Virus record (IMG/VR): IMGVR_UViG_2579778842_000017
Coordinates: 5,703 to 69,702 of that record
Origin: a virus
Taxonomy: Duplodnaviria; Heunggongvirae; Uroviricota; Caudoviricetes
Direction: 5' to 3' (one strand)
Length of the DNA stretch: 64,000 bases
Below the pieces are notes generated by a model. That model was not told where the DNA came from. It ran no database searches and worked only from the letters and a program-made list of their open reading frames with translations. Below are positions 736-58,649 of the stretch, piece by piece (position 1 is the stretch's first letter; each line of letters starts with the position of its first letter). The position numbers were made by a program, and so were the translations under genes.

Positions 736-1158
736 TTAGTGCTTGTATAGCTTGAACTCCCTGTCGAGCCATAAGACATAAAAAGTGGCTCCTATCTTAT
801 AACCAACCATAGGTGCCTTAGAGCAAAATCTGAACGCAATGAAATCCACATCTTGAGTAACATGCTTAGGAATCGGAGCTTTTATCGCGTTTCTGGCAAT
901 TTTTTCCGTCCCAAGCCCGTGTTTATCAGATTTTCGTATCTCATCCCATGACATCCGACTTAACCTGAACAGCCTATCTGCAAATGCTGCCTTTTCATGC
1001 TTTTGGCAGCAATCTAGGCAATACCCCTTTTGTAGGTATCTAAGAGAAAATACAGGCGGACTTTTGTCTACATCATGAGATTCGTGATGGATAGAGAGGC
1101 CAACAGTAGCAGAGCTCTCTTTATCCCTCTGTTTTATTCTTCCCTTAACTCTAGACAT
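736..1158 (-). CDS. putative toxin partner of the Panacea protein (family not recognised)
   Basis: 140 aa basic protein starting 5 nt downstream of the DUF4065 gene in the same operon. Confidence 0.4.
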   Translation of the reverse strand: MSRVKGRIKQRDKESSATVGLSIHHESHDVDKSPPVFSLRYLQKGYCLDCCQKHEKAAFADRLFRLSRMSWDEIRKSDKHGLGTEKIARNAIKAPIPKHVTQDVDFIAFRFCSKAPMVGYKIGATFYVLWLDREFKLYKH

Positions 1159-1163
1159 ACACG

Positions 1164-1613
1164 TCAGTTAATTAACGTTTTGAAAAAACCTTTCATAGAA
1201 TCAAGTGTGATTTCTTGGCTAACCGCACCCTCAATGTAAGCATCTTTCCATGGCTGCTCTTCGTGAGTCATATTGCGCAGTTTCCAGGCAGAAAACTGAC
1301 CATAAACTTTATACACCTCATCCAGCAATTCAATTTCATCTTCACTGAATTTTTTAGCGTCAAAGTTTTCTGGCGCAGGTAAAGCTCCGTTACCACAGTC
1401 CCTATATTTACGATACAATTCAGGAACTACTGGCCCATGCATCCAGGCTTCAATTTTCTCATTAAATAGCGGCTTACCCAGAAGAACCAGAGAAAACCCT
1501 TGGGCATAATACGTCAACTTCTGAATTTTTAGGTTAGAGATAATGTCGCCACTTTCTTCATCGCAATGCGCCAAGAAGTAGTCGGCGACATCAAAACAAG
1601 TGAGCATAAACAT
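1164..1613 (-). CDS. Panacea (DUF4065) domain protein, putative antitoxin
   Basis: 149 aa; motifs KIQKLTYYAQGF and EAWMHGPVVPELY that I recall as typical of DUF4065/PanA. Confidence 0.6.
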   Translation of the reverse strand: MFMLTCFDVADYFLAHCDEESGDIISNLKIQKLTYYAQGFSLVLLGKPLFNEKIEAWMHGPVVPELYRKYRDCGNGALPAPENFDAKKFSEDEIELLDEVYKVYGQFSAWKLRNMTHEEQPWKDAYIEGAVSQEITLDSMKGFFKTLIN

Positions 1614-1770
1614 ACCTCCATCTTGATAGCCGCAGCTATGTATACAACTGTGTCAAGTTGCATTTAATACCATAACAAAGCTGTCATCAATCCTTCAGAG
1701 GCTAACTTACAACCACTTTATCGACACGTTTAAATCATTACATTTCACATTTACTGCATTTTCGCCGAAG

Positions 1771-1785
1771 TTACCTATAAGGTAA
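1771..1785. promoter_or_regulatory. operator-like palindrome TTACC-TATAA-GGTAA (site 1 of 5)
   Basis: Exact TTACC-N5-GGTAA in the divergent intergenic region upstream of the Panacea operon; followed by ATGTCAC half-site. Confidence 0.4.
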
Positions 1786-5459: not shown

Positions 5460-6113
5460 TTAAAAAAGTGAACCAAGAAGACCGACGCCAGCACCAATTG
5501 CTGTACCCCAACCAGGCATGATTGCAGTACCTGCAGCTGCACCTGCTGCCGCTCCACCCAAGGCGCTCTGAAATCCTGATGGTTTATTCGCATTAGCCGC
5601 AGATGCTGCCGCCTGCTGTTGATACAATTGGCTGACGTTGTTGGCATAGTTCTGCCCGGCGTTTGCCTGACCTGTAAGAGCGCCAAGGCCGATATTTGCC
5701 AGATTGTTGTAGTTGTTCATCTGACCTGACAGCCAGTTTTGACCGAGTGTAGGTGCGATTGCTGCTAACTGGTTTCCTGTTGCTGTAGAGCCTAATCCAC
5801 CCGTTGCCTCTGCTGCTGCCAGACTCTGGTAACGCGCCTGCCCTGCAAGGTCTTTGTACTGCTGGGAGTTGTAATACTGGTTAAGCGCCTGACCTTGCCC
5901 CTGAAGAGAGGAAAGATTTTGCAACTGTGATACGTACTGCTGAGCGAGTGGCGTGAACGGTGCAAGGTTCTGCATGTTCGTCTGCCACATTTCACGCTGC
6001 AGTTCGATACCTTTTTCAGTTGCGCGTGCCTGGGCTTTTGAACCGCCATCACTGCCACCTTTGCAGTAAACAGCTTTGCTGAGGTGCTTATTGGCAATCT
6101 GGAAAATTAACAT
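5460..6113 (-). CDS. ejection protein, P22 gp7-like
   Basis: 217 aa, Gln/Ala/Gly-rich, position and size match gp7 (~229 aa). Confidence 0.6.
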   Translation of the reverse strand: MLIFQIANKHLSKAVYCKGGSDGGSKAQARATEKGIELQREMWQTNMQNLAPFTPLAQQYVSQLQNLSSLQGQGQALNQYYNSQQYKDLAGQARYQSLAAAEATGGLGSTATGNQLAAIAPTLGQNWLSGQMNNYNNLANIGLGALTGQANAGQNYANNVSQLYQQQAAASAANANKPSGFQSALGGAAAGAAAGTAIMPGWGTAIGAGVGLLGSLF

Positions 6114-20616: not shown

Positions 20617-21227
20617 GCGGCCTCACTTCTGCTATTTCGCAGGTCTTTGAGTTTCTGTTGGTACTCTGCCTTGATCGCCTTGCACTCTTCGACAGTCCAG
20701 CGATGGCGGTTATGGTTTGATTCGATTTCGTCTACTGCTTCCTGCCCGATACGGCTAATCAGTTCGACGCGATACGGAACGAGATTTCCGCTTTTGTGCT
20801 GGTTGCACACCACGCATTGCTTGTGAATATTGCGTTCATCAAATCGGAGTTGAGGTGCCGCAGCAGTTGTCCGGTAATGTCCGGCATCCCACTGAGCAGA
20901 CGTGATCGTTCCGCATGAGATACATGGTAAGTCGCGGTCTCTTTCTCTGATGAAGGCGTTTACGGCTTGTTGGACTTGTTTAATCCAGTAACTGCGGGGC
21001 TTTAAGGCGAGTTTTCGAATCTTAAGTTTATCTTTCTGTTTCTGCTCCTCTCGTCGTCGTTTCTTCTCTGCTGCTTTTTCCGCTTTTTCGCGTTCTTTGC
21101 TTCGTCGTTCGAGTGCTATCTTTGTTCCACACTCTGGAGAGCACCACCACTGATTAGCGAATGCAGGGTGAAACCATTCCCGACATTCTTCGTTTTTACA
21201 TCGTCTTCGCGCTGGTTTAGCCATCAT
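20613..21227 (-). CDS. ninG: NinG recombination-associated protein
   Basis: Start refined to [12 protein letters not shown]...; near-identical to lambda NinG as recalled. Confidence 0.85.
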
Positions 21228-33835: not shown

Positions 33836-34651
33836 GTGAGCCAGATTGATTATCAGGCACTGCGTGCTAAGGCAGAAAAAGCAACGTGTGGCGAGTGGTC
33901 GCTCGAATATGGAGAGGGCCGATTTGATGGTGATGATGCGCTAATTCATCGCGAGGCTGCTGGATATATTCCCATTTGCAGAATTGAAGGAGCGCATCCA
34001 GAAAGCGGTTTCGATGAAGATTTCCAAATGGAACAGCAGGCCAATGCTGAATTCATCGCCGCAGCCAATCCGGCTACCGTCTTGGCGCTGCTGGATGAGC
34101 TGGAAAGAAAACAGCAATACATCAAACGCCGTGACCAGGAGAACGAGGATATTGCTCTTACGGTTGGGAAGCTGAGAGTTGAGCTTGAGGAAGTAAAACA
34201 ACACGCTGAAGAATTATCCGAAACCAAGGCTGTTCGTAACCAATGGCGACCAGATATTTGCCCAATAACCGGACGTGCATTTTTCATGTGGATTGAGCAT
34301 CCAACATTGGGGAATGTGCCGACATATGGTGGCCCATTAGATAGTTACACCATTCCAACAAAGGACGGTGACGGTGAGTTTTCATGTGAGCGTTACGATC
34401 ATGATTTTGGCGGTTGGGTAGAAAGCGAATGTCTTGGGTTATATCTGATTGATGATAGAGAACAATGCAGGGTCTACGAACTGGAGGAACACGTTAAGGA
34501 ACTGGATGCTCGGGAAATATCGCTCCCGGAACGTAGCAGCATGCTTCATCGAACAGATTTTCACGATGATTACCAAACGGTAATGGCATACAAAGTTTCT
34601 GAAGTCATCGCTGCAATCCGCGCCGCAGGCATTCGCATCAAAGGAGAGTGA
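33836..34651 (+). CDS. Ea22-like (ead) protein
   Basis: 271 aa; family typical of the end of lambdoid PL operons. Confidence 0.65.
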   Translation: MSQIDYQALRAKAEKATCGEWSLEYGEGRFDGDDALIHREAAGYIPICRIEGAHPESGFDEDFQMEQQANAEFIAAANPATVLALLDELERKQQYIKRRDQENEDIALTVGKLRVELEEVKQHAEELSETKAVRNQWRPDICPITGRAFFMWIEHPTLGNVPTYGGPLDSYTIPTKDGDGEFSCERYDHDFGGWVESECLGLYLIDDREQCRVYELEEHVKELDAREISLPERSSMLHRTDFHDDYQTVMAYKVSEVIAAIRAAGIRIKGE

Positions 34652-36466: not shown

Positions 36467-36473
36467 GCATGGT

Positions 36474-36502
36474 ACTATTACCACAACGGTAACTATTACC
36501 AC
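36474..36502 (+). repeat. 11-bp direct repeat ACTATTACCAC x2 upstream of terS-B
   Basis: Copies at 36474 and 36492; second embedded in GGTAA-CTA-TTACC. Confidence 0.35.
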
Positions 36503-36509
36503 GGTGGTT

Positions 36510-37106
36510 ATGATGCCTGCTGAACCTAAAACCTATAAACGCAAATCAACGCAATTTAAGCCACTAACAGCAATGCAGGAGGCTTATTGCCAGTCATACA
36601 TCAAAACGCCTGAAAACCAGACTCAGGCAGCGATTAACGCAGGATTCTCCCCAAATACAGCGGCAGTTAAAGCCAGTGTCATGATGCGCGATGAACGCAT
36701 TCAAAAACGGATTGCCGAGCTGATGGAGGAGCGCAACAAACGAATGCGCGTCAGTGCTGATTACGTTCTCATGCGCCTGGTGGAGATCGACCAGATGGAC
36801 GTGATTGATATCCTCAACGACGATGGGAGTCTTAAGCCAATCCGCGAGTGGCCGAAAATCTGGCGCACTACGCTTAGTGGCTTTGATCTGTCATCGACCA
36901 TCATGAACATGAACGAGGATTCGATAGAGACAATCCTCAAAAAAATTAAATGGCCTGACAAGATGAAGAACCTCGAACTGATTGGTAAGCACGTCGACGT
37001 TAACGCGTTCAAAGAGCGCCTGGAGGTTTCCGGCACGGTCACCATCGCCGACCGCATGGCCGCCGCCCGGCGCCGCGTCATAGAGCAGGCTGGTGGTGAA
37101 GAATGA
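36510..37106 (+). CDS. terminase small subunit (module B)
   Basis: Start refined to MMPAEPK... downstream of the terminator (track ORF from 36432); directly precedes terminase large subunit. Confidence 0.65.
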   Translation: MMPAEPKTYKRKSTQFKPLTAMQEAYCQSYIKTPENQTQAAINAGFSPNTAAVKASVMMRDERIQKRIAELMEERNKRMRVSADYVLMRLVEIDQMDVIDILNDDGSLKPIREWPKIWRTTLSGFDLSSTIMNMNEDSIETILKKIKWPDKMKNLELIGKHVDVNAFKERLEVSGTVTIADRMAAARRRVIEQAGGEE

Positions 37107-38668: not shown

Positions 38669-39040
38669 TTATTGCTCGCTTAACTTCTGCTTCAGCAAGT
38701 AACCTTCAAGCATCCAGATTTTGTTTACAGCATTCTGTCGGGCAATCTTCCGACCAATTTCTGCATCAAAGTTTTCCGGGCTTGCACAGGCGCTCTCTCC
38801 GGTGACGGTGAAGCCGTTGCGCAGCACCAGGACGCAGAACGTCAGCAGAGAAAGTGATTCGTGCGGCTGGTAGTTTACCTCTCCGCCAGTATGTTTCGCT
38901 TTTATGGCTACGCCAAAGGCACCATCTTCTGCTGTGAAATATGCCTCCTGAGCAATAATGCTCTCGATATGGTCTGGCGTAACGCGCGGCGCGGCTAAAC
39001 CTTTAGCCTGAATTTCAGATTCAATGTCTTTGTCACTCAT
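38669..39040 (-). CDS. hypothetical protein (antisense to module B late genes)
   Basis: 123 aa on the opposite strand between terL-B and the tRNA. Confidence 0.5.
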   Translation of the reverse strand: MSDKDIESEIQAKGLAAPRVTPDHIESIIAQEAYFTAEDGAFGVAIKAKHTGGEVNYQPHESLSLLTFCVLVLRNGFTVTGESACASPENFDAEIGRKIARQNAVNKIWMLEGYLLKQKLSEQ

Positions 39041-39640: not shown

Positions 39641-39655
39641 TTACCTGAAAGGTAA
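39641..39655. promoter_or_regulatory. operator-like palindrome TTACC-TGAAA-GGTAA (site 2 of 5)
   Basis: Exact match about 90 nt upstream of the 39746 ORF and portal; flanks resemble site 5. Confidence 0.4.
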
Positions 39656-53249: not shown

Positions 53250-55724
53250 ATGAGACAGGAATGTATACAAGCGGTCCAGCAGGCGGCGCAGCGCACGTTA
53301 ACGGCGCGAGAAATACAGAACATTGAAGACCGCATTTATCGAAATATGCGCTCCATTGCTCGTGATGACCCGATGTCGTGGAGACAACTTTCCGAATCAG
53401 AGCGGCTATATCGTGCAGCACAATTGGCATCTGAAGAATTACAGCGAGAAGCGGCATTAAAGAAACGTCGTGTGGCCCTCACTATAGCCGCACGTCAGAG
53501 ATTGGATAAATTTATCAATAGCTATCAAGGGGCTGATGGGAAACTTGGCGCTCTTAACCGTACTATTGCTTTTAATGCAGACGGTAAATCGAATTTCCTC
53601 TCTGTTGAATCCAGAACAAAAGCCACCCGTGATTATGCATTGAGTCAATTGCAGGAGGCATTCGAAGCAGTTGATCCTCGCTTTTTTGGTCTGTTTGAAG
53701 ATGAAGCGGGCGTACGTGACCTGGTATATGAAATGCGGGGGCAAAATACTGGCAATGCTAAAGCAAGAAAAGGTGCTAAGGCGTGGAGAGAAGTGACAGA
53801 GCTACTGCGCCGCCGGTTTAATGATGCTGGTGGGGACATTGGCTATCTCGAAAACTGGGGGATCCCTCAACATCATTCTATGGAAAAGGTTGGGGCGGTA
53901 TCAAAGGATAAGTGGGTTAGCGATGTTATAGGTAAGCTGGATCGCAAATATTATATCCGAGCCGATGGACAACTGATGAACGATGCCGAGTTGTCTGCAT
54001 TTCTTGGAGAGGCTTATAACACGATCGCTACTGGTGGGCTGAATAAGCTTACTGATACCGGAATGCGAATTTCCGGCGCACGTGCTAACCGTGGTAATGC
54101 ATCACGACAGATACATTTCAAAGATGCAGATTCCTATCTGCAATATCAGCAACTTTATGGCGATCGCTCTCTATGGGAAATCATGGTCGGTCACCTGGAA
54201 GGTATCAGTAAAGATATTGCACTGGTGGAAACATATGGTCCAAACCCCGATCATGTTTTCCGCTCCCTTCTTGATCAGGTTAAGGCAGAAACGGCAACAG
54301 CTAACCCGAGTAAAACCGGTAAAGTCGAGCGGCTGGCGAACAAAACAGAGAACCTGTACAACTTTATTTCCGGAAAGACACAGCCTGTAGCGAATCCGCA
54401 CATCGCGCGATGGTCTGACAATATCCGCAACTGGCTGGTTGCCAGCAGACTCGGATCCGCGTTGCTGTCATCGTTCTCTGATCTTGGAACCATGTATCTG
54501 TCTGCGAAGGTTACCAACCTTCCAATGAACCAGTTATTCCGCAACCAGCTTGAAGCTATGGACCCAACGAACCGTACAGAACTTGCGCGGGCGCGCCGCG
54601 CTGGTCTGGCGATGGAATCTCTACTTGGCAGCGTTAACCGCTGGGCGATGGATAATATGGGGCCGTCAGTGTCTCGTTGGGCGGCAACGGCGGTAATGCG
54701 TGCCAGTGGGCTTACAGCATGGTCAGATGCGCACAAGCGCGCCTATGGCGTAACCATGATGGGAAGCCTGGGAGAAGTAGTGTCACGGACACCAGACCTT
54801 CGTAGCCTCGATGACTATGATTTTCGTATCCTGAAAAGCAAAGGGATTACTGACACAGACTGGAGCGTATGGAAGCTGGCGCAACAGGAGGACTGGGGGA
54901 ACGGTAATAATACGATGCTGACACCGGAAAGCATTATGCGTATCCCTGATTCAGCAGTTAAACATCTTGGTGAGCCTGAACGTGTGAAATTTGAGGCAAT
55001 GCGTAAACTGCTCGGTGCCGTAACTGAAGAAGTTGATATGGCTGTTATTACACCGGGCGCACGTGAACGGATGTTCGTAGGGTCTGGTCTTCAGCGTGGA
55101 ACATGGAAAGGTGAATTAACGAGAAGTGTTTTCCTGTTTAAATCGTTCCCTATCTCGGTAGTTATGCGTCACTGGCATAGAGCTATGGGGATGCCGTCTG
55201 CTGGTGGGCGTGCGGCATATATAGCAACGTTTTTAGCAAGCACAACCATGCTTGGTGCTCTTTCCATGCAGATTACTGATCTTATTAATGGGAGAAATCC
55301 AAAAGAAATGACCGGTGACAACATGGTTAAATTCTGGATAAATGCATTTTTAAAAGGTGGTGGGGCAGGGTTGTATGGTGATTTTCTTTTCTCTGACCAC
55401 ACCAGGTACGGGAGCGGCGCACTAGCGTCGATGCTTGGCCCGGTAGCTGGTCTGGTTGATGACGTAGTGAAGATTGCTCAGGGCATACCGTTAAATGCTG
55501 TGGAAGGGAAGAATGAGCAGACTGGTGGTGATCTGGTTAAGCTTGGGAAAGGTTTGATGCCTGGTGCGAATCTCTGGTACTTGAAGGCGGCTCTCGATCA
55601 CATGATCTTTAATCAGATGCAGGAGTATTTTTCACCAGGCTATTTGCGTAAAATGGAGCAACGTTCGAAGAAAGAGTTTAACCAGACATACTGGTGGCGA
55701 CCTCAGGATGTCACTCCGCAATAA
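53250..55724 (+). CDS. internal core protein (gp16-like, part 2)
   Basis: 824 aa, synteny only. Confidence 0.5.
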   Translation: MRQECIQAVQQAAQRTLTAREIQNIEDRIYRNMRSIARDDPMSWRQLSESERLYRAAQLASEELQREAALKKRRVALTIAARQRLDKFINSYQGADGKLGALNRTIAFNADGKSNFLSVESRTKATRDYALSQLQEAFEAVDPRFFGLFEDEAGVRDLVYEMRGQNTGNAKARKGAKAWREVTELLRRRFNDAGGDIGYLENWGIPQHHSMEKVGAVSKDKWVSDVIGKLDRKYYIRADGQLMNDAELSAFLGEAYNTIATGGLNKLTDTGMRISGARANRGNASRQIHFKDADSYLQYQQLYGDRSLWEIMVGHLEGISKDIALVETYGPNPDHVFRSLLDQVKAETATANPSKTGKVERLANKTENLYNFISGKTQPVANPHIARWSDNIRNWLVASRLGSALLSSFSDLGTMYLSAKVTNLPMNQLFRNQLEAMDPTNRTELARARRAGLAMESLLGSVNRWAMDNMGPSVSRWAATAVMRASGLTAWSDAHKRAYGVTMMGSLGEVVSRTPDLRSLDDYDFRILKSKGITDTDWSVWKLAQQEDWGNGNNTMLTPESIMRIPDSAVKHLGEPERVKFEAMRKLLGAVTEEVDMAVITPGARERMFVGSGLQRGTWKGELTRSVFLFKSFPISVVMRHWHRAMGMPSAGGRAAYIATFLASTTMLGALSMQITDLINGRNPKEMTGDNMVKFWINAFLKGGGAGLYGDFLFSDHTRYGSGALASMLGPVAGLVDDVVKIAQGIPLNAVEGKNEQTGGDLVKLGKGLMPGANLWYLKAALDHMIFNQMQEYFSPGYLRKMEQRSKKEFNQTYWWRPQDVTPQ

Positions 55725-55733
55725 GGAACAACA

Positions 55734-56147
55734 ATGAAGGAATTATTGCTGTTATCGGTATTTTTGATATCCGCTTGCTCGACATCCTATGATGTTTATG
55801 ACGGTGTTGATAAGGCATATTGCGACAAAGTTAAAATGGATTTTTCTCTTGCCAAGACGGCGAAGGATAGTTGTATTGATCACTACGTCAAGACTTATAC
55901 CAAGCCAGCCTCATCGGCATCTGATATTGCTGAAGGTGCTGTGTTTGAGTGTAACAAGGTGATATCCATCGCAGCGAGTTCTTCATACGATGCTGCTGTA
56001 TGTGCAATGGCTGAAAGAAACGGCATGTCAGTGCAAAAAATTAATAGCATGATAAGCAGTAATGACGAAGCCAAAATAAGAACTGATATCAGCTCGGTGA
56101 AAAAAGATGCCATGAACAGAGTTGTAAAATATCAGTCATCTTTATAA
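55734..56147 (+). CDS. lipoprotein (possible superinfection-exclusion moron)
   Basis: 137 aa; signal peptide with lipobox LISAC; last gene of the plus-strand structural block. Confidence 0.55.
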   Translation: MKELLLLSVFLISACSTSYDVYDGVDKAYCDKVKMDFSLAKTAKDSCIDHYVKTYTKPASSASDIAEGAVFECNKVISIAASSSYDAAVCAMAERNGMSVQKINSMISSNDEAKIRTDISSVKKDAMNRVVKYQSSL

Positions 56148-56150
56148 GTC

Positions 56151-56162
56151 GTGACATGTCAC
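56151..56162. promoter_or_regulatory. perfect 12-bp palindrome GTGACATGTCAC (copy 2)
   Basis: Starts 4 nt after the lipoprotein stop, directly followed by a terminator hairpin. Confidence 0.35.
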
Positions 56163-56186
56163 AGGCCGCTTTCGCGGCCTTGTTTT
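56163..56186. terminator. terminator between lipoprotein gene and convergent peptide gene
   Basis: GGCCGC-TTTC-GCGGCC hairpin followed by TTGTTTTT on the plus strand. Confidence 0.55.
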
Positions 56187-56347
56187 TAACGAATGCCACC
56201 GCCACCCGGGCGGGAATCCGCAGAACGCCCACCGCAGCGGGAGCCGTCAGCAGCAGTGTCGCTGTCGTGCTGACAACGACCGGCAAAGGCCTGAGTTGAA
56301 GCTACCAGAGACAACAAAACGAACAGTGCAGCAAATGCTTTTTTCAT
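56186..56347 (-). CDS. small secreted Cys-containing peptide
   Basis: 53 aa from internal Met of track ORF 56186..56566; signal peptide MKKAFAALFVLLSLVASTQAFA; 31-aa mature part with 2 Cys and Gly-rich tail. Confidence 0.4.
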   Translation of the reverse strand: MKKAFAALFVLLSLVASTQAFAGRCQHDSDTAADGSRCGGRSADSRPGGGGIR

Positions 56348-56420
56348 TGTGAAATTTCCATCTATAAGCCACCTCAATGTGGCGTCAATGAGTGTTAGCA
56401 CTGACTTTTGTTTCGTCCAC

Positions 56421-56440
56421 AAAAAATCCCGCAGCGCGGG
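56421..56440 (-). terminator. intrinsic terminator after the two-gene cassette
   Basis: Minus strand: CCCGCGCTGCGGG hairpin followed by TTTTTTGT, right after the stop at 56442. Confidence 0.5.
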
Positions 56441-56441
56441 C

Positions 56442-56882
56442 TTATTCTTCTTCATCATTAAAAAGCGGATTGTTATTTCCATCTGATGAAAGGAAAGGTA
56501 TGTGTTCTCTTGAAAATCCAACAATGACAATTTCATTATCATTTTTTGCATAATGAATGCATTCATTAGAATGCATTCCGCCAGGGTTGAAATTTAAGTT
56601 AATGGTATAATTCTTAAATGTGTTTGGATACCATGTTGGCCCACAATGATAATGCCAATAATTCTCTTGCTCATAATTGTCTGAGCCGGGAATTTTATCA
56701 TGGTTATCATCAACCCACGAGGGCTTGTTTTTTCCAACAAGCGCCCTTCCATTGGCAACATCCTCTAAAAAACTTTGTATGATTTTTATTTCATCATCAG
56801 TAAGGAAAGGTCCGTCTACAGCGAAAGGGGTGTTGCTTTCCCCATGTAGAAAACTATTAGATATTCTAATGTTAAACTTCAA
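56442..56882 (-). CDS. hypothetical protein, AT-rich cassette gene 2
   Basis: About 146 aa from a TTG 6 nt after an AGGAG site (track ORF extends to 57023 in overlap with gene 1); no in-frame ATG near the 5' end. Confidence 0.4.
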   Translation of the reverse strand: MKFNIRISNSFLHGESNTPFAVDGPFLTDDEIKIIQSFLEDVANGRALVGKNKPSWVDDNHDKIPGSDNYEQENYWHYHCGPTWYPNTFKNYTINLNFNPGGMHSNECIHYAKNDNEIVIVGFSREHIPFLSSDGNNNPLFNDEEE

Positions 56883-56902
56883 GGAAAACTCCTGATGTGC
56901 TT

Positions 56903-57070
56903 CTATTTGGAGCGAAATGCCGCCTTGAAGTCGCTGAAAGATGTTCCTGTCTGGTAAACCATATCCTTGTCGCGCTCTTTGCTTGCGCGGCCAAGCATAA
57001 CTTTTCCAATGACATCCCAGCATTGCTTGGCTTGTTCATTGTGCTGAGTACGATTTTTCAACGCTGTCAT
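56903..57070 (-). CDS. 55-aa basic protein, candidate regulator, cassette gene 1
   Basis: ORF below the track cutoff, translated by hand (MTALKNRTQHNEQAKQCWDVIGKVMLGRASKERDKDMVYQTGTSFSDFKAAFRSK); AAGGAGG ribosome-binding site; operator-like site at its promoter. Confidence 0.4.
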   Translation of the reverse strand: MTALKNRTQHNEQAKQCWDVIGKVMLGRASKERDKDMVYQTGTSFSDFKAAFRSK

Positions 57071-57082
57071 ATCGCGCCTCCT

Positions 57083-57097
57083 TTACCTTTAAGGTAA
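57083..57097. promoter_or_regulatory. operator-like palindrome TTACC-TTTAA-GGTAA (site 3 of 5) at a promoter
   Basis: Minus strand reads TTGCAG-17 nt-TACTAT then TTACCTTTAAGGTAA and AAGGAGG before the 55-aa ORF. Confidence 0.5.
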
Positions 57098-57170
57098 TAG
57101 TACGCTATTCACCCACAGTCTGCAATCTGTACAGAATTATTTAAAGGCACATCCCTGTGCCGCCGTTCTG

Positions 57171-57881
57171 TCAGAAGAACCCTGCCTTGTCGTTGATGTA
57201 CTCCGCGTGCGTCTGGATATCACGCAGGCATTTGCTCACACCGACGATGTAGCAGAACATGGTGGTCAGCTCCGCCGCCGCGCCAGATACGTCGTGCCCG
57301 TCGTCCTGCAACTGGTTCAGCAGATTCATCAGCAGTGAGTTCTCCGTCAGGCCGAGAACACCAGACGGCGAGTGAATCAGGCTGCGGTAGCCGGGCTTCA
57401 GTGGGGCACTGTAGGTTTTGTTCTCTATCTTCATTGCCTGTATTACTGCTGACGCCGTGGCGTTGGCTACCTGGTCGGCAACCATCTTTATGCGTTCTTC
57501 CTGCGGGAGCGAGTCTTTAATGTAACTTCCGGTGCGGCGGATCTGAGGAAGAACCTCACCTGTAACCCATTTACGAAAGCGGTAGGGGATAGTGCCTGGT
57601 GTCACCGCATCGCGGCAGCGGAGGATCAGTGTGTAGAGGCCTGACTCGGAGATGATGTTGAGCTCTTTTACTCGGCTATCAAAAATTGCACGATGTTCAT
57701 GCCCTATGTTGAACATAGACCTTTCATCATCATCCAGTTTTTCAAGTGATTGGGTGACGTTTTGGATACGCAGCGCACTACAAACGTCTTGGGCTACAAA
57801 CCATGGTTGGCCATCGATAATGATGGAACGGATAGGGTTAACAGATTCAAATTTGAAGATGGCAGTTTGAGCATTAGCCAT
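57171..57881 (-). CDS. Bro-N domain antirepressor-like protein
   Basis: Start refined to MANAQTAIFKF...; N-terminal IIIDGQPWFVAQDVCSALRI is a Bro-N signature; C-terminal domain paralogous to the 85-aa protein upstream. Confidence 0.65.
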   Translation of the reverse strand: MANAQTAIFKFESVNPIRSIIIDGQPWFVAQDVCSALRIQNVTQSLEKLDDDERSMFNIGHEHRAIFDSRVKELNIISESGLYTLILRCRDAVTPGTIPYRFRKWVTGEVLPQIRRTGSYIKDSLPQEERIKMVADQVANATASAVIQAMKIENKTYSAPLKPGYRSLIHSPSGVLGLTENSLLMNLLNQLQDDGHDVSGAAAELTTMFCYIVGVSKCLRDIQTHAEYINDKAGFF

Positions 57882-58036
57882 GGTGGTTATCTCCACTTAG
57901 TGATTTTAATCACCACCGCAACGCCAATTACTGGTGGTGAACTGGACAAGGTTGGCGTACCGGCCTAAGTGGTACCGGCGTCCTTTCGGACCCCTGCCCA
58001 GCCCACCATAATTCGGATATGGCTGTGCTTAACGCA

Positions 58037-58059
58037 TAAAAAAACCACGTCTGGCGTGG
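58037..58059 (-). terminator. terminator-like hairpin with U-run
   Basis: Minus strand: CCACGCCAGACGTGG followed by TTTTTTT. Confidence 0.4.
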
Positions 58060-58150
58060 TATGCGCCACTTAGTAACTCGGGACGCCAATCCCGGCACTG
58101 GATTTTTCCAGTGCCCGATTACTATGGCACAAGAGGAGTGCGATGTAAAT

Positions 58151-58165
58151 TTACCGCAAAGGTAA
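58151..58165. promoter_or_regulatory. operator-like palindrome TTACC-GCAAA-GGTAA (site 4 of 5)
   Basis: Nested inside inverted repeat GGAGTGC...GCACTCC (58135..58178); minus-strand context TTGCAA-18 nt-TATATT then TTACC. Confidence 0.4.
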
Positions 58166-58196
58166 ATATAAGCACTCCACTTGGTAATTGCAAACC

Positions 58197-58454
58197 TTAT
58201 CTGGTTTGTTTTCGTAATTGTTCGGCACAATAGTCGAGATGTGTTTGCAGATCCCGCATAGACATCTGTGAGCTGGTGACGTAGTTAATCAGTGCAGTCA
58301 GTTCGGCAAGTGGGCCATCGACATTAAATCCATCCTTATCGAGCTCCCGGAGTAATTTCATCAAGTGCGATCCCTCCACCAGTGATCTAACGCCTCCCGG
58401 CGTGTGAATCCTTTCGGTAAATCCGTCTTCCAGTGGATAGTGATACTGCTGCAT
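58197..58454 (-). CDS. small antirepressor-like protein (paralog of the Bro-N protein C-terminus)
   Basis: 85 aa from ATG after GGAGAA site (track ORF 58197..58472 starts at TTG); about 45% identity by eye to residues about 150-236 of the Bro-N protein. Confidence 0.5.
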   Translation of the reverse strand: MQQYHYPLEDGFTERIHTPGGVRSLVEGSHLMKLLRELDKDGFNVDGPLAELTALINYVTSSQMSMRDLQTHLDYCAEQLRKQTR

Positions 58455-58475
58455 CTTATCTTCTCCATGCAATAA

Positions 58476-58491
58476 CTGTATAAATATACAG
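58476..58491. promoter_or_regulatory. LexA (SOS) box
   Basis: CTGTATAAATATACAG, a near-consensus CTGT-N8-ACAG palindrome about 22 nt upstream of the 85-aa gene start. Confidence 0.7.
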
Positions 58492-58530
58492 TATCAAATA
58501 ATTTATTTGCTATCCAGCACGTTTTGCGAA

Positions 58531-58545
58531 TCACCTGAAAGGTAA
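58531..58545. promoter_or_regulatory. operator-like palindrome TCACC-TGAAA-GGTAA (site 5 of 5, one mismatch)
   Basis: About 105 nt upstream of the tail fibre gene; flanks resemble site 2. Confidence 0.35.
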
Positions 58546-58649
58546 TATCTGTTCGTATTTATGGGTTGTCTATCCATATATGGTTTTTCAGGTAATAGAA
58601 TAACCGGATATGCGGCGCAACGGGTGCTGCGACTATCTGGAGATTTAAC

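Follow-up and report, generated by a model that had tools for sequence, protein, structure and literature searches.

A probable toxin–antitoxin-like cassette with a predicted RelE/ParE-type fold in an exchangeable slot of a Uetakevirus-type prophage

Toxin–antitoxin modules of the RelE, YoeB, YafQ and HigB type are two-gene operons with a small upstream partner and a patchy, mobile distribution. YafN-YafO has the antitoxin gene ahead of the toxin gene, and YafO itself lies at the edge of the RelE superfamily (PMC7180214, PMC8546651, PMC11980606). PaaA2-ParE2 of Escherichia coli O157 prophages belongs to the RelE/ParE fold class; PaaA2 is a very short antitoxin without a DNA-binding domain, and regulation is provided by a separate, dedicated PaaR-type gene. 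Here we describe a two-gene cassette, encoding proteins of 55 and 146 amino acids (aa), at positions 56442-57097 of a 64,000-nucleotide (nt) stretch of viral DNA (positions 5,703 to 69,702 of IMG/VR record IMGVR_UViG_2579778842_000017), referred to as a whole as the window. On balance, the cassette is probably a type II-like toxin–antitoxin module carried by the phage. The 146-aa protein would represent a new sequence family of RelE/ParE fold, probably a His-dependent endoribonuclease, the 55-aa protein would be a short toxin-binding antitoxin, and both would occupy a slot controlled by the prophage repressor.

The cassette shares with the RelE, YoeB, YafQ and HigB operons their two-gene layout, small upstream partner and mobile distribution, and with yafNO the antitoxin-then-toxin order. 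An AlphaFold2 model of the 146-aa protein, built on the family alignment (predicted local distance difference test (pLDDT) 91, predicted template modelling score (pTM) 0.86), has the RelE-type alpha/beta fold of the RelE/ParE (BECR) superfamily, an assignment that the model supports well. Foldseek searches of PDB ranked YafQ, HP0894, YoeB, RelK and HigB at the top, with E-values of 0.2-0.8 that are not significant; searches of BFVD gave no matches. Compared with RelE-type toxins, the 146-aa protein has ~55 additional residues, an added strand and helix at the N-terminus and 28 residues inserted between strands, and the E. coli member of the family is acidic. An earlier reading made from the sequence only had recognised no family for either protein and had called for profile and structure-prediction searches. 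The first statement holds at the sequence level (Pfam, NCBIfam, PADLOC and PDB searches gave no match for the 146-aa protein) and fails at the level of the predicted fold.

When 1.84 billion representatives were searched with a profile, 118 clusters of the toxin family were returned at E ≤ 0.001. A word-indexed search returned 36 clusters; all named ones are "hypothetical" and come from Enterobacterales and Pasteurellaceae. Two residues, H79 and H127, do not vary among 91 diverse members, and conservation reaches at least 90% at H77, Y78, H110, Y111, N52, K53 and S55. The close family shows next to no variation, or none, in GKNKPSW, YWHYHCG, IHY and S-x-x-H-x-PF. In the model one predicted strand carries H77 and H79 and the following strand H110 and Y111; H127 comes directly after the last strand, at the position where YoeB, YafQ and HigB have a catalytic His. 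Conserved His, Lys and Tyr residues on the sheet are typical of these ribonuclease (RNase) members and not of ParE, and the 146-aa protein is predicted to share both this arrangement and the His after the last strand. Toxin genes begin with a weak start codon in several lineages (TTG in E. coli, Pectobacterium and Serratia, GTG in Erwinia), which is counted in favour of the toxin–antitoxin interpretation.

A same-strand open reading frame (ORF) lies directly upstream of the toxin gene in all 84 loci inspected (76 IMG/VR loci recovered with the toxin alignment and 8 others, namely the window and seven fetched loci), with an intergenic gap of -29 to +21 nt (up to 68 as called). Partners are 55-211 aa long. 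Their last ~30 aa align and follow the pattern h-h-x-G/S-R, 7-9 residues, h-S/T-Y/F, 4 residues, S/T-h-D/E-D/E-F/I/L-x-x-A-h, while the N-terminal parts are unrelated. A conserved C-terminus on variable N-termini is the pattern expected of a toxin-binding segment. Direct sequence searches with the 55-aa protein found close relatives only, and no Pfam, NCBIfam, PADLOC or PDB sequence match was obtained. The 55-aa partner is unrelated to RelB, YefM, DinJ and HigA, which it also differs from in having no recognisable DNA-binding domain. It resembles PaaA2, a very short antitoxin, in that it seems to consist of just a toxin-binding segment; PaaA2-ParE2 is prophage-borne too. ParE2 belongs to a different toxin branch, is not an RNase and has no sequence similarity to the 146-aa protein, and the presumed regulator of the cassette is the main prophage repressor, acting at a genome-wide operator, rather than a dedicated gene. 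A YafN-like C-terminus (T-x-x-D-F) in the 55-aa protein was considered and rejected; the profile of partner-family C-termini detects neither YafN nor TL-2011b gp45. The 184-211-aa partners of distant members (IMG/VR loci L061-L097) start with a conserved N-L-S-L-N-P-I-F segment and a hydrophobic stretch. Such a start suggests that the shared C-terminal toxin-binding motif has been fused to another kind of N-terminal module, perhaps a membrane-associated one.

Uetakevirus-like prophages of E. coli, Pectobacterium and Serratia carry the pair beside a Bro-N gene, Klebsiella lambdoid prophages carry it in their nin region, and it is found in Proteus and, next to a gene for a MuF polyvalent protein, in a Pasteurellaceae prophage. 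In Erwinia persicina the two genes stand by themselves, with accA on one side and an IF-2B-family gene on the other. Relatives with a traced source come from Enterobacterales, Pasteurellaceae and viral contigs. Among 5426 complete E. coli genomes, 77 (1.4%) carry the pair, always both genes and always on the chromosome. This patchy, horizontally mobile distribution over mobile elements and a lone chromosomal islet is as expected of type II modules.

The cassette is an allele of YafO-type toxin–antitoxin cassettes in a slot downstream of an antirepressor gene, as the same promoter-operator stands before five cargo types, two of them YafO-type. IMG/VR was searched for the exact 33-nt promoter-operator (TTGCAG...TACTATTACC), which was found in 37 contigs. 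The cargo is a 59-aa protein with a YafO-family protein (PF13957, E = 8e-6) in 22 contigs, and the 55-aa and 146-aa pair described here in 10. Three contigs carry a 108-aa and a 170-aa protein, the latter (from contig L109) matching YafO_toxin over nearly the whole profile with E = 7e-4, below the Pfam cut-off. The remaining cargoes, in one contig each and without Pfam matches, are a single 210-aa protein and a 69-aa protein with a 288-aa membrane protein that has N-terminal membrane helices; both may be uncharacterised exclusion or defence genes. Contigs L109, L111 and L113 supplied further alleles of the slot. In this slot phage TL-2011b differs only in the exchangeable segment (Table 1), where it has a 59-aa ORF and a 181-aa protein (gp44) matching Pfam YafO_toxin with E = 8e-6; the palindrome-bearing promoter, the final codons and the terminator are common to both. 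YafO-type cassettes of TL-2011b-type phages thus fill exactly the same slot. If confirmed, one promoter-operator-terminator frame with at least five alternative cargoes, three of them two-gene cargoes with YafO-type or RelE-fold proteins, would be a natural experiment. The frame bears a prophage repressor operator and so would also offer a testable case of toxin–antitoxin expression tied to the lysis-lysogeny switch.

The cassette promoter carries the palindrome TTACC-N5-GGTAA, which appears to be a Uetakevirus repressor operator. The window contains 8 sites with at most one mismatch (0.94 expected), including those upstream of terS, ant and a gp19-like gene; this frequency, far above chance, marks the palindrome as a phage-wide element and not a private operator. 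phiV10, which lacks the cassette, has 14 sites (0.77 expected). Almost all of these come immediately after a -10-like hexamer, and the divergent repressor/cro-like region contains two of them. phiv142-3 has 10 exact copies. In the epsilon15 RefSeq record (NC_004775.2), ATTACC-N5-GGTAAT at equivalent places is annotated 'protein_bind: repressor, lysogeny'. The cassette site has the same arms and spacing as the epsilon15/phiV10 operators and lies directly after the -10, as at the terS, ant, early-left and early-right promoters. Those operators are paired at terS and in the immunity region, whereas the cassette has a single site, to which binding is putative. Across the cassette loci compared, the arms are conserved and the 5-nt spacer varies. 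The arrangement TACTA-TTACC, in which the -10 abuts the palindrome, also precedes terS (36470-36492). The position of the palindrome over -10/+1 is the placement expected in a Uetakevirus repressor regulon, and the cassette promoter is, from its sequence, wired into that regulon. In published work, lysis-gene transcripts fell by more than 99.9% when the identical, phiV10-type repressor was over-expressed (PMC9782041).

Of the 76 IMG/VR loci, 53 are not of the E. coli-type cassette, and in these 53 the palindrome is absent within 600 nt upstream of the toxin gene; it is also absent from the Erwinia copy. A Klebsiella copy of the palindrome lies ~610 nt upstream. A Klebsiella lambdoid prophage has kept one palindrome upstream of the cassette operon and has none in its immunity region, which we read as the promoter having travelled with the cargo. 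A role of the palindrome as an RNA hairpin is unlikely: the expected transcription start lies inside it, which makes a DNA operator more likely. The proposal that the palindrome is the cassette's own operator, made in the sequence-only reading, had to be given up, since it occurs 14 times in cassette-less phiV10, is annotated as a repressor site in epsilon15, is missing within 600 nt upstream in non-Uetakevirus homologues and stands in an identical promoter before unrelated cargo.

In the window and in phiV10 (14 sites), palindromes accompany almost every phage promoter: those of terS, the gp3-like gene, ant, the gp19-like gene, oac/p27, int, early-left, the repressor/cro region and the replication and nin-like operons. 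The window sites among them are at 36478-36510, 39641-39655, 58151-58165 and 58531-58545. To judge by these sites, the immunity system has a scattered-operator layout. This layout is annotated in the epsilon15 record, and no description of it was found in the searchable literature. A second palindrome-like motif, AACCAnATATGGTT, lies beside several repressor sites (phiV10 near 20900, 24720 and 33140; window ~58590) and could be the binding site of another factor. The epsilon15 record annotates integration host factor (IHF) sites near locations of the AACCAnATATGGTT type.

In the module as we picture it, the antitoxin gene comes before the toxin gene, and a modest sigma-70 promoter has its -10 and start site covered by one copy of the Uetakevirus repressor operator. 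As the operator covers these elements, expression would be tied to the state of the prophage repressor rather than, or besides, antitoxin autoregulation. The 146-aa protein, with its predicted RelE/ParE fold extended by an N-terminal strand and helix, would be an endoribonuclease, probably acting on mRNA, and H77, H79, H110/Y111, H127 and K53/N52 would be its catalytic or RNA-binding residues. The 55-aa protein would neutralise the toxin by binding it through the conserved C-terminal ~30 residues. Likely roles are growth arrest or abortive-infection-type protection, or retention of the prophage; the main alternative is a task in lytic growth after derepression. If confirmed, the cassette would bring a new antitoxin family and a RelE-fold toxin family so far without annotation, where there is now merely "hypothetical protein" or PHROGs 5954 and 8607. 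It is present in 1.4% of complete E. coli genomes, including that of the porcine enterotoxigenic strain UMNK88, and annotation pipelines leave it unnamed.

Several results weigh against a toxin–antitoxin module of this kind. At the sequence level the 146-aa protein has no link to any known toxin family. A Pfam scan of its 68 relatives (69 sequences in total, 31 close and 38 distant members) found neither YafO nor any other toxin family; the 13 Pfam families of BECR toxins given in PMC11980606 are all without a match here. Searches of PDB with the single sequence and with a 91-sequence profile gave chance matches only, to a cytochrome repeat and Cks1. PADLOC-DB 2.0 defence models gave no match at E up to 1 for the 55-aa or the 146-aa protein, and PHROGs gave function-unknown families only (5954 and 8607). 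No DNA-binding or any other known domain was detected in the 55-aa protein or in seven diverse partners, and the promoter palindrome is a phage repressor site, so the cassette departs from type II modules whose antitoxin has a DNA-binding domain and regulates its own promoter. Such a domain is common, not universal, in type II antitoxins. The acidic 146-aa protein (pI, isoelectric point, 4.8) with a basic partner (pI 9.8) is the reverse of classical RelE/RelB pairs. Finally, if repression in lysogens were full, a lysogen-protective role would need leaky or conditional expression.

Membership of the YafO family itself is not borne out by sequence comparison. None of 69 family members matches PF13957 (E up to 10 for the 31 close members and up to 0.01 for the 38 distant ones), while the slot-mates do (TL-2011b gp44, 8e-6; the 170-aa protein of L109, 7e-4). 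Alignment to the YafO family with hhalign gave E-values of 0.011-0.083 and probabilities below 4%. Its score of 15.8 was reached by 5 of 60 column-shuffled controls and is thus not above them, a further point against the toxin–antitoxin interpretation. The aligned motifs follow in the same order (an L-T/S-x-x-E helix; GKNK/GRD; WHYH/aHIH; S..IHY/SD.HLVY; S..H/P..H), and the 146-aa protein is without the C-terminal helices of YafO. A YafO model with pLDDT 50 was too poor for fold comparison. With a score in the shuffled range and no PF13957 match, YafO homology was rejected as a demonstrated relationship and kept as a lead.

Four other explanations were weighed. The 146-aa protein could be an RNase of the lytic cycle, made only after loss of the repressor, that reshapes host or phage mRNA while the small protein times or limits its activity. 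The cassette shares its operator with terS, ant, int and the early operons and may therefore be silent in stable lysogens, and the predicted fold is that of RelE-type RNases; T4 RegB, an endoribonuclease of RelE/YoeB fold, provides an analogy. We nevertheless hold this explanation to be unlikely, as the pair stands alone in the Erwinia chromosome with neither phage nor operator, occurs in lambdoid nin regions without a matching repressor, and is dispensable, being absent from phiV10; two slot alleles are, moreover, of the type of YafO, a toxin of a chromosomal toxin–antitoxin system. An equally improbable explanation keeps the RelE/ParE fold and dispenses with RNase activity, so that the 146-aa protein would either poison a different target in the manner of ParE or be non-toxic, serving in binding or anti-defence, and the 55-aa protein would act as its partner or chaperone. 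Its acidity, unusual for an RNA-binding toxin, and the absence of a sequence match to characterised RNase families speak for this. The four conserved His residues with Lys and Tyr on the predicted sheet, typical of YoeB, YafQ and HigB and not of ParE, speak against it, and the best structural matches are RNase members.

The two remaining explanations concern the division of labour between the proteins. The sequence-only reading had offered a regulator-effector pair and a toxin–antitoxin-like pair as alternatives. For the former, a small, basic 55-aa protein would bind TTACC-N5-GGTAA, which overlaps the promoter, and control a downstream effector. We give this little credence: the palindrome is phage-wide, is present in cassette-less phages and before unrelated small proteins under the same promoter, and is missing upstream of the pair in the IMG/VR and Erwinia loci mentioned above. 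Searches of the 55-aa protein and its relatives gave no DNA-binding domain, and conservation of the partner C-terminus alone fits protein binding better than DNA binding. It is also very improbable that the polarity is reversed, with a toxic small basic protein and the acidic 146-aa protein as its antidote. The charge pattern would suit this, but it is not conserved: long partners have a pI of about 5, and in the 146-aa family the median pI is 6.7 with 28 of 91 members above 8. The predicted toxin fold is on the 146-aa protein, and the gene order is that of antitoxin-first modules such as yafNO (PMC11980606). The toxin–antitoxin alternative is favoured by the predicted RelE/ParE fold, the upstream partner in every locus and the allelism with YafO-type cassettes.

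A more elaborate version of the toxin–antitoxin interpretation is speculative and, taken as a whole, doubtful. In it the slot would be a repressor-gated "dead-man's switch" for interchangeable RNase toxins, in which the cassette and its YafO-type alleles stay silent while the Uetakevirus repressor is present and fire, together with the antirepressor, when repression collapses or the DNA enters a repressor-free cell. The toxin would then serve the phage decision circuit or inter-phage competition and not classical post-segregational killing. Its family would be a fourteenth, unrecognised RelE-fold toxin sequence family, and its partner a new antitoxin type made up of a toxin-binding segment only.

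Table 1. Features of the cassette, with window coordinates
Feature	Position	Strand	Remarks
-35 hexamer TTGCAG	57125-57120	minus	17-nt spacer to -10
-10 hexamer TACTAT	57102-57097	minus	read from sequence
TTACC-N5-GGTAA palindrome TTACCTTAAAGGTAA	57097-57083	no strand	overlaps last base of -10 and expected start site
Shine-Dalgarno AAGGAGG	57083-57077	minus	6 nt before ATG at 57070
55-aa ORF, putative antitoxin	56903-57070	minus	ATG start; pI 9.8; PHROG 8607 (function unknown)
Shine-Dalgarno AGGAG	56893-56889	minus	6 nt before TTG at 56882
146-aa ORF, putative toxin	56442-56882	minus	TTG start; YWHYHCGPTWYP motif, NDEEE tail; PHROG 5954 (function unknown)
Terminator-like hairpin CCCGCGCUGCGGG + U6	56440-56421	minus	canonical; short
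Exchangeable cargo segment	56466-57081	minus	replaced in TL-2011b, promoter-operator and terminator kept (pairwise blastn, alignments)

All minus-strand elements listed in the sequence-only reading were recovered (the -35/-10 pair, the palindrome, AAGGAGG, the genes for the 55-aa basic and 146-aa proteins, and the hairpin). In E. coli UMNK88, RefSeq/PGAP calls the identical pair of ORFs and labels each "hypothetical protein"; the accessions are WP_000125783.1 for the 55-aa and WP_000671197.1 for the 146-aa protein. The promoter matches the consensus at 8 of 12 positions (the threshold of the promoter scan was 9 of 12) and is a modest sigma-70 promoter. The two ORFs are separated by 20 nt and lie between one promoter and one terminator, forming one transcription unit as in type II modules. 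The genes had been called coupled, which is right as to their close spacing and wrong as to overlap, the second gene having its own AGGAG site. A promoter and a terminator of the cassette's own are present as claimed; the operator is not its own. The terminator had been described as strong, and that description goes too far: the hairpin has 5 GC pairs and -8.3 kcal/mol (z = -1.1 against shuffles). The same hairpin is found in the TL-2011b YafO cassette and in phiv142-3.

The right half of the window is an E. coli prophage of the epsilon15/phiV10 type (Uetakevirus), with 36053-62452 aligning with phiV10 and phiv142-3. The cassette region shares 99% identity with phage phiv142-3 and 100% with the prophage integrated at guaA in E. 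coli UMNK88. It is situated between the last virion gene of the plus strand (53250-55724) and the gene for the tailspike (58650-60677), in a minus-strand island that also contains the Bro-N antirepressor gene (57171-57896). GC content is 0.35-0.40 over 56350-56950 and 0.48-0.57 on either flank, which agrees with the AT-richness noted earlier. phiV10 lacks window positions 56209-57169. The suggestion of an accessory, moron-like insert is thus upheld by the absence of the cassette from phiV10 and the other cargo in its place in TL-2011b.

The UMNK88 Uetakevirus prophage matches the window only to the right of ~34076 (99.6%), inside an ead/Ea22-like gene (33836-34651). To the left lies a lambdoid left-operon and immunity region, with cI (27210-27860), an N-like gene (28210-28509), erf (30880-31587), ssb and an exonuclease gene, followed by an entire lambdoid late region that reaches down to position 1. 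No phiV10-type repressor gene is present in the window; the UMNK88 repressor has the accession WP_000836290.1. The junction at ~34076 was found in none of 5426 complete E. coli genomes and reflects either recombination at the Ea22-like gene or a chimeric assembly. In the lambdoid part (736-1785, minus strand), a SocA/Panacea-domain gene (1164-1613; Pfam E = 2e-24) is preceded, at a distance of ~160 nt, by an exact palindrome copy (1771-1785) and followed by a 140-aa ORF (736-1158) without a Pfam match. The two genes may be a second toxin–antitoxin-like pair; the single palindrome copy could be chance, with ~0.06 expected per 64 kb. A candidate second RelE-like gene at 38669-39040 was rejected, being PF13876 (N4 Gp49/Sf6 gp66) and not of the HigB-like gp49 family.

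Neighbouring genes of the slot also vary. At the end of the virion operon, 55734-56147 (plus strand) encodes a 137-aa predicted lipoprotein (lipobox LISAC; PHROG 8691, function unknown), another variable accessory gene, which takes the position of a 46-aa membrane protein gene of phiV10. A separate 53-aa gene at 56186-56347 (minus strand) has a product with a signal peptide (MKKAFAALFVLLSLVASTQAFA...; PHROG 14503, 'membrane associated protein'); a promoter-like pair TTGACG...TATAGA stands just past the cassette terminator. This gene accompanies every cargo type in the slot and is absent from phiV10. An Rfam scan of 54000-60000 found no RNA family within the cassette. Upstream of the antirepressor gene, in 57930-58127 (minus strand), it found a C4 antisense RNA (57930-58013, 66 bits), isrK (58038-58114, 66 bits) and a c4 a1/b1 target element (58075-58127). 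The antirepressor promoter (58194-58165) likewise bears a repressor palindrome (58151-58165), and the antirepressor appears to be under antisense-RNA control of the P1/P7 immI type.

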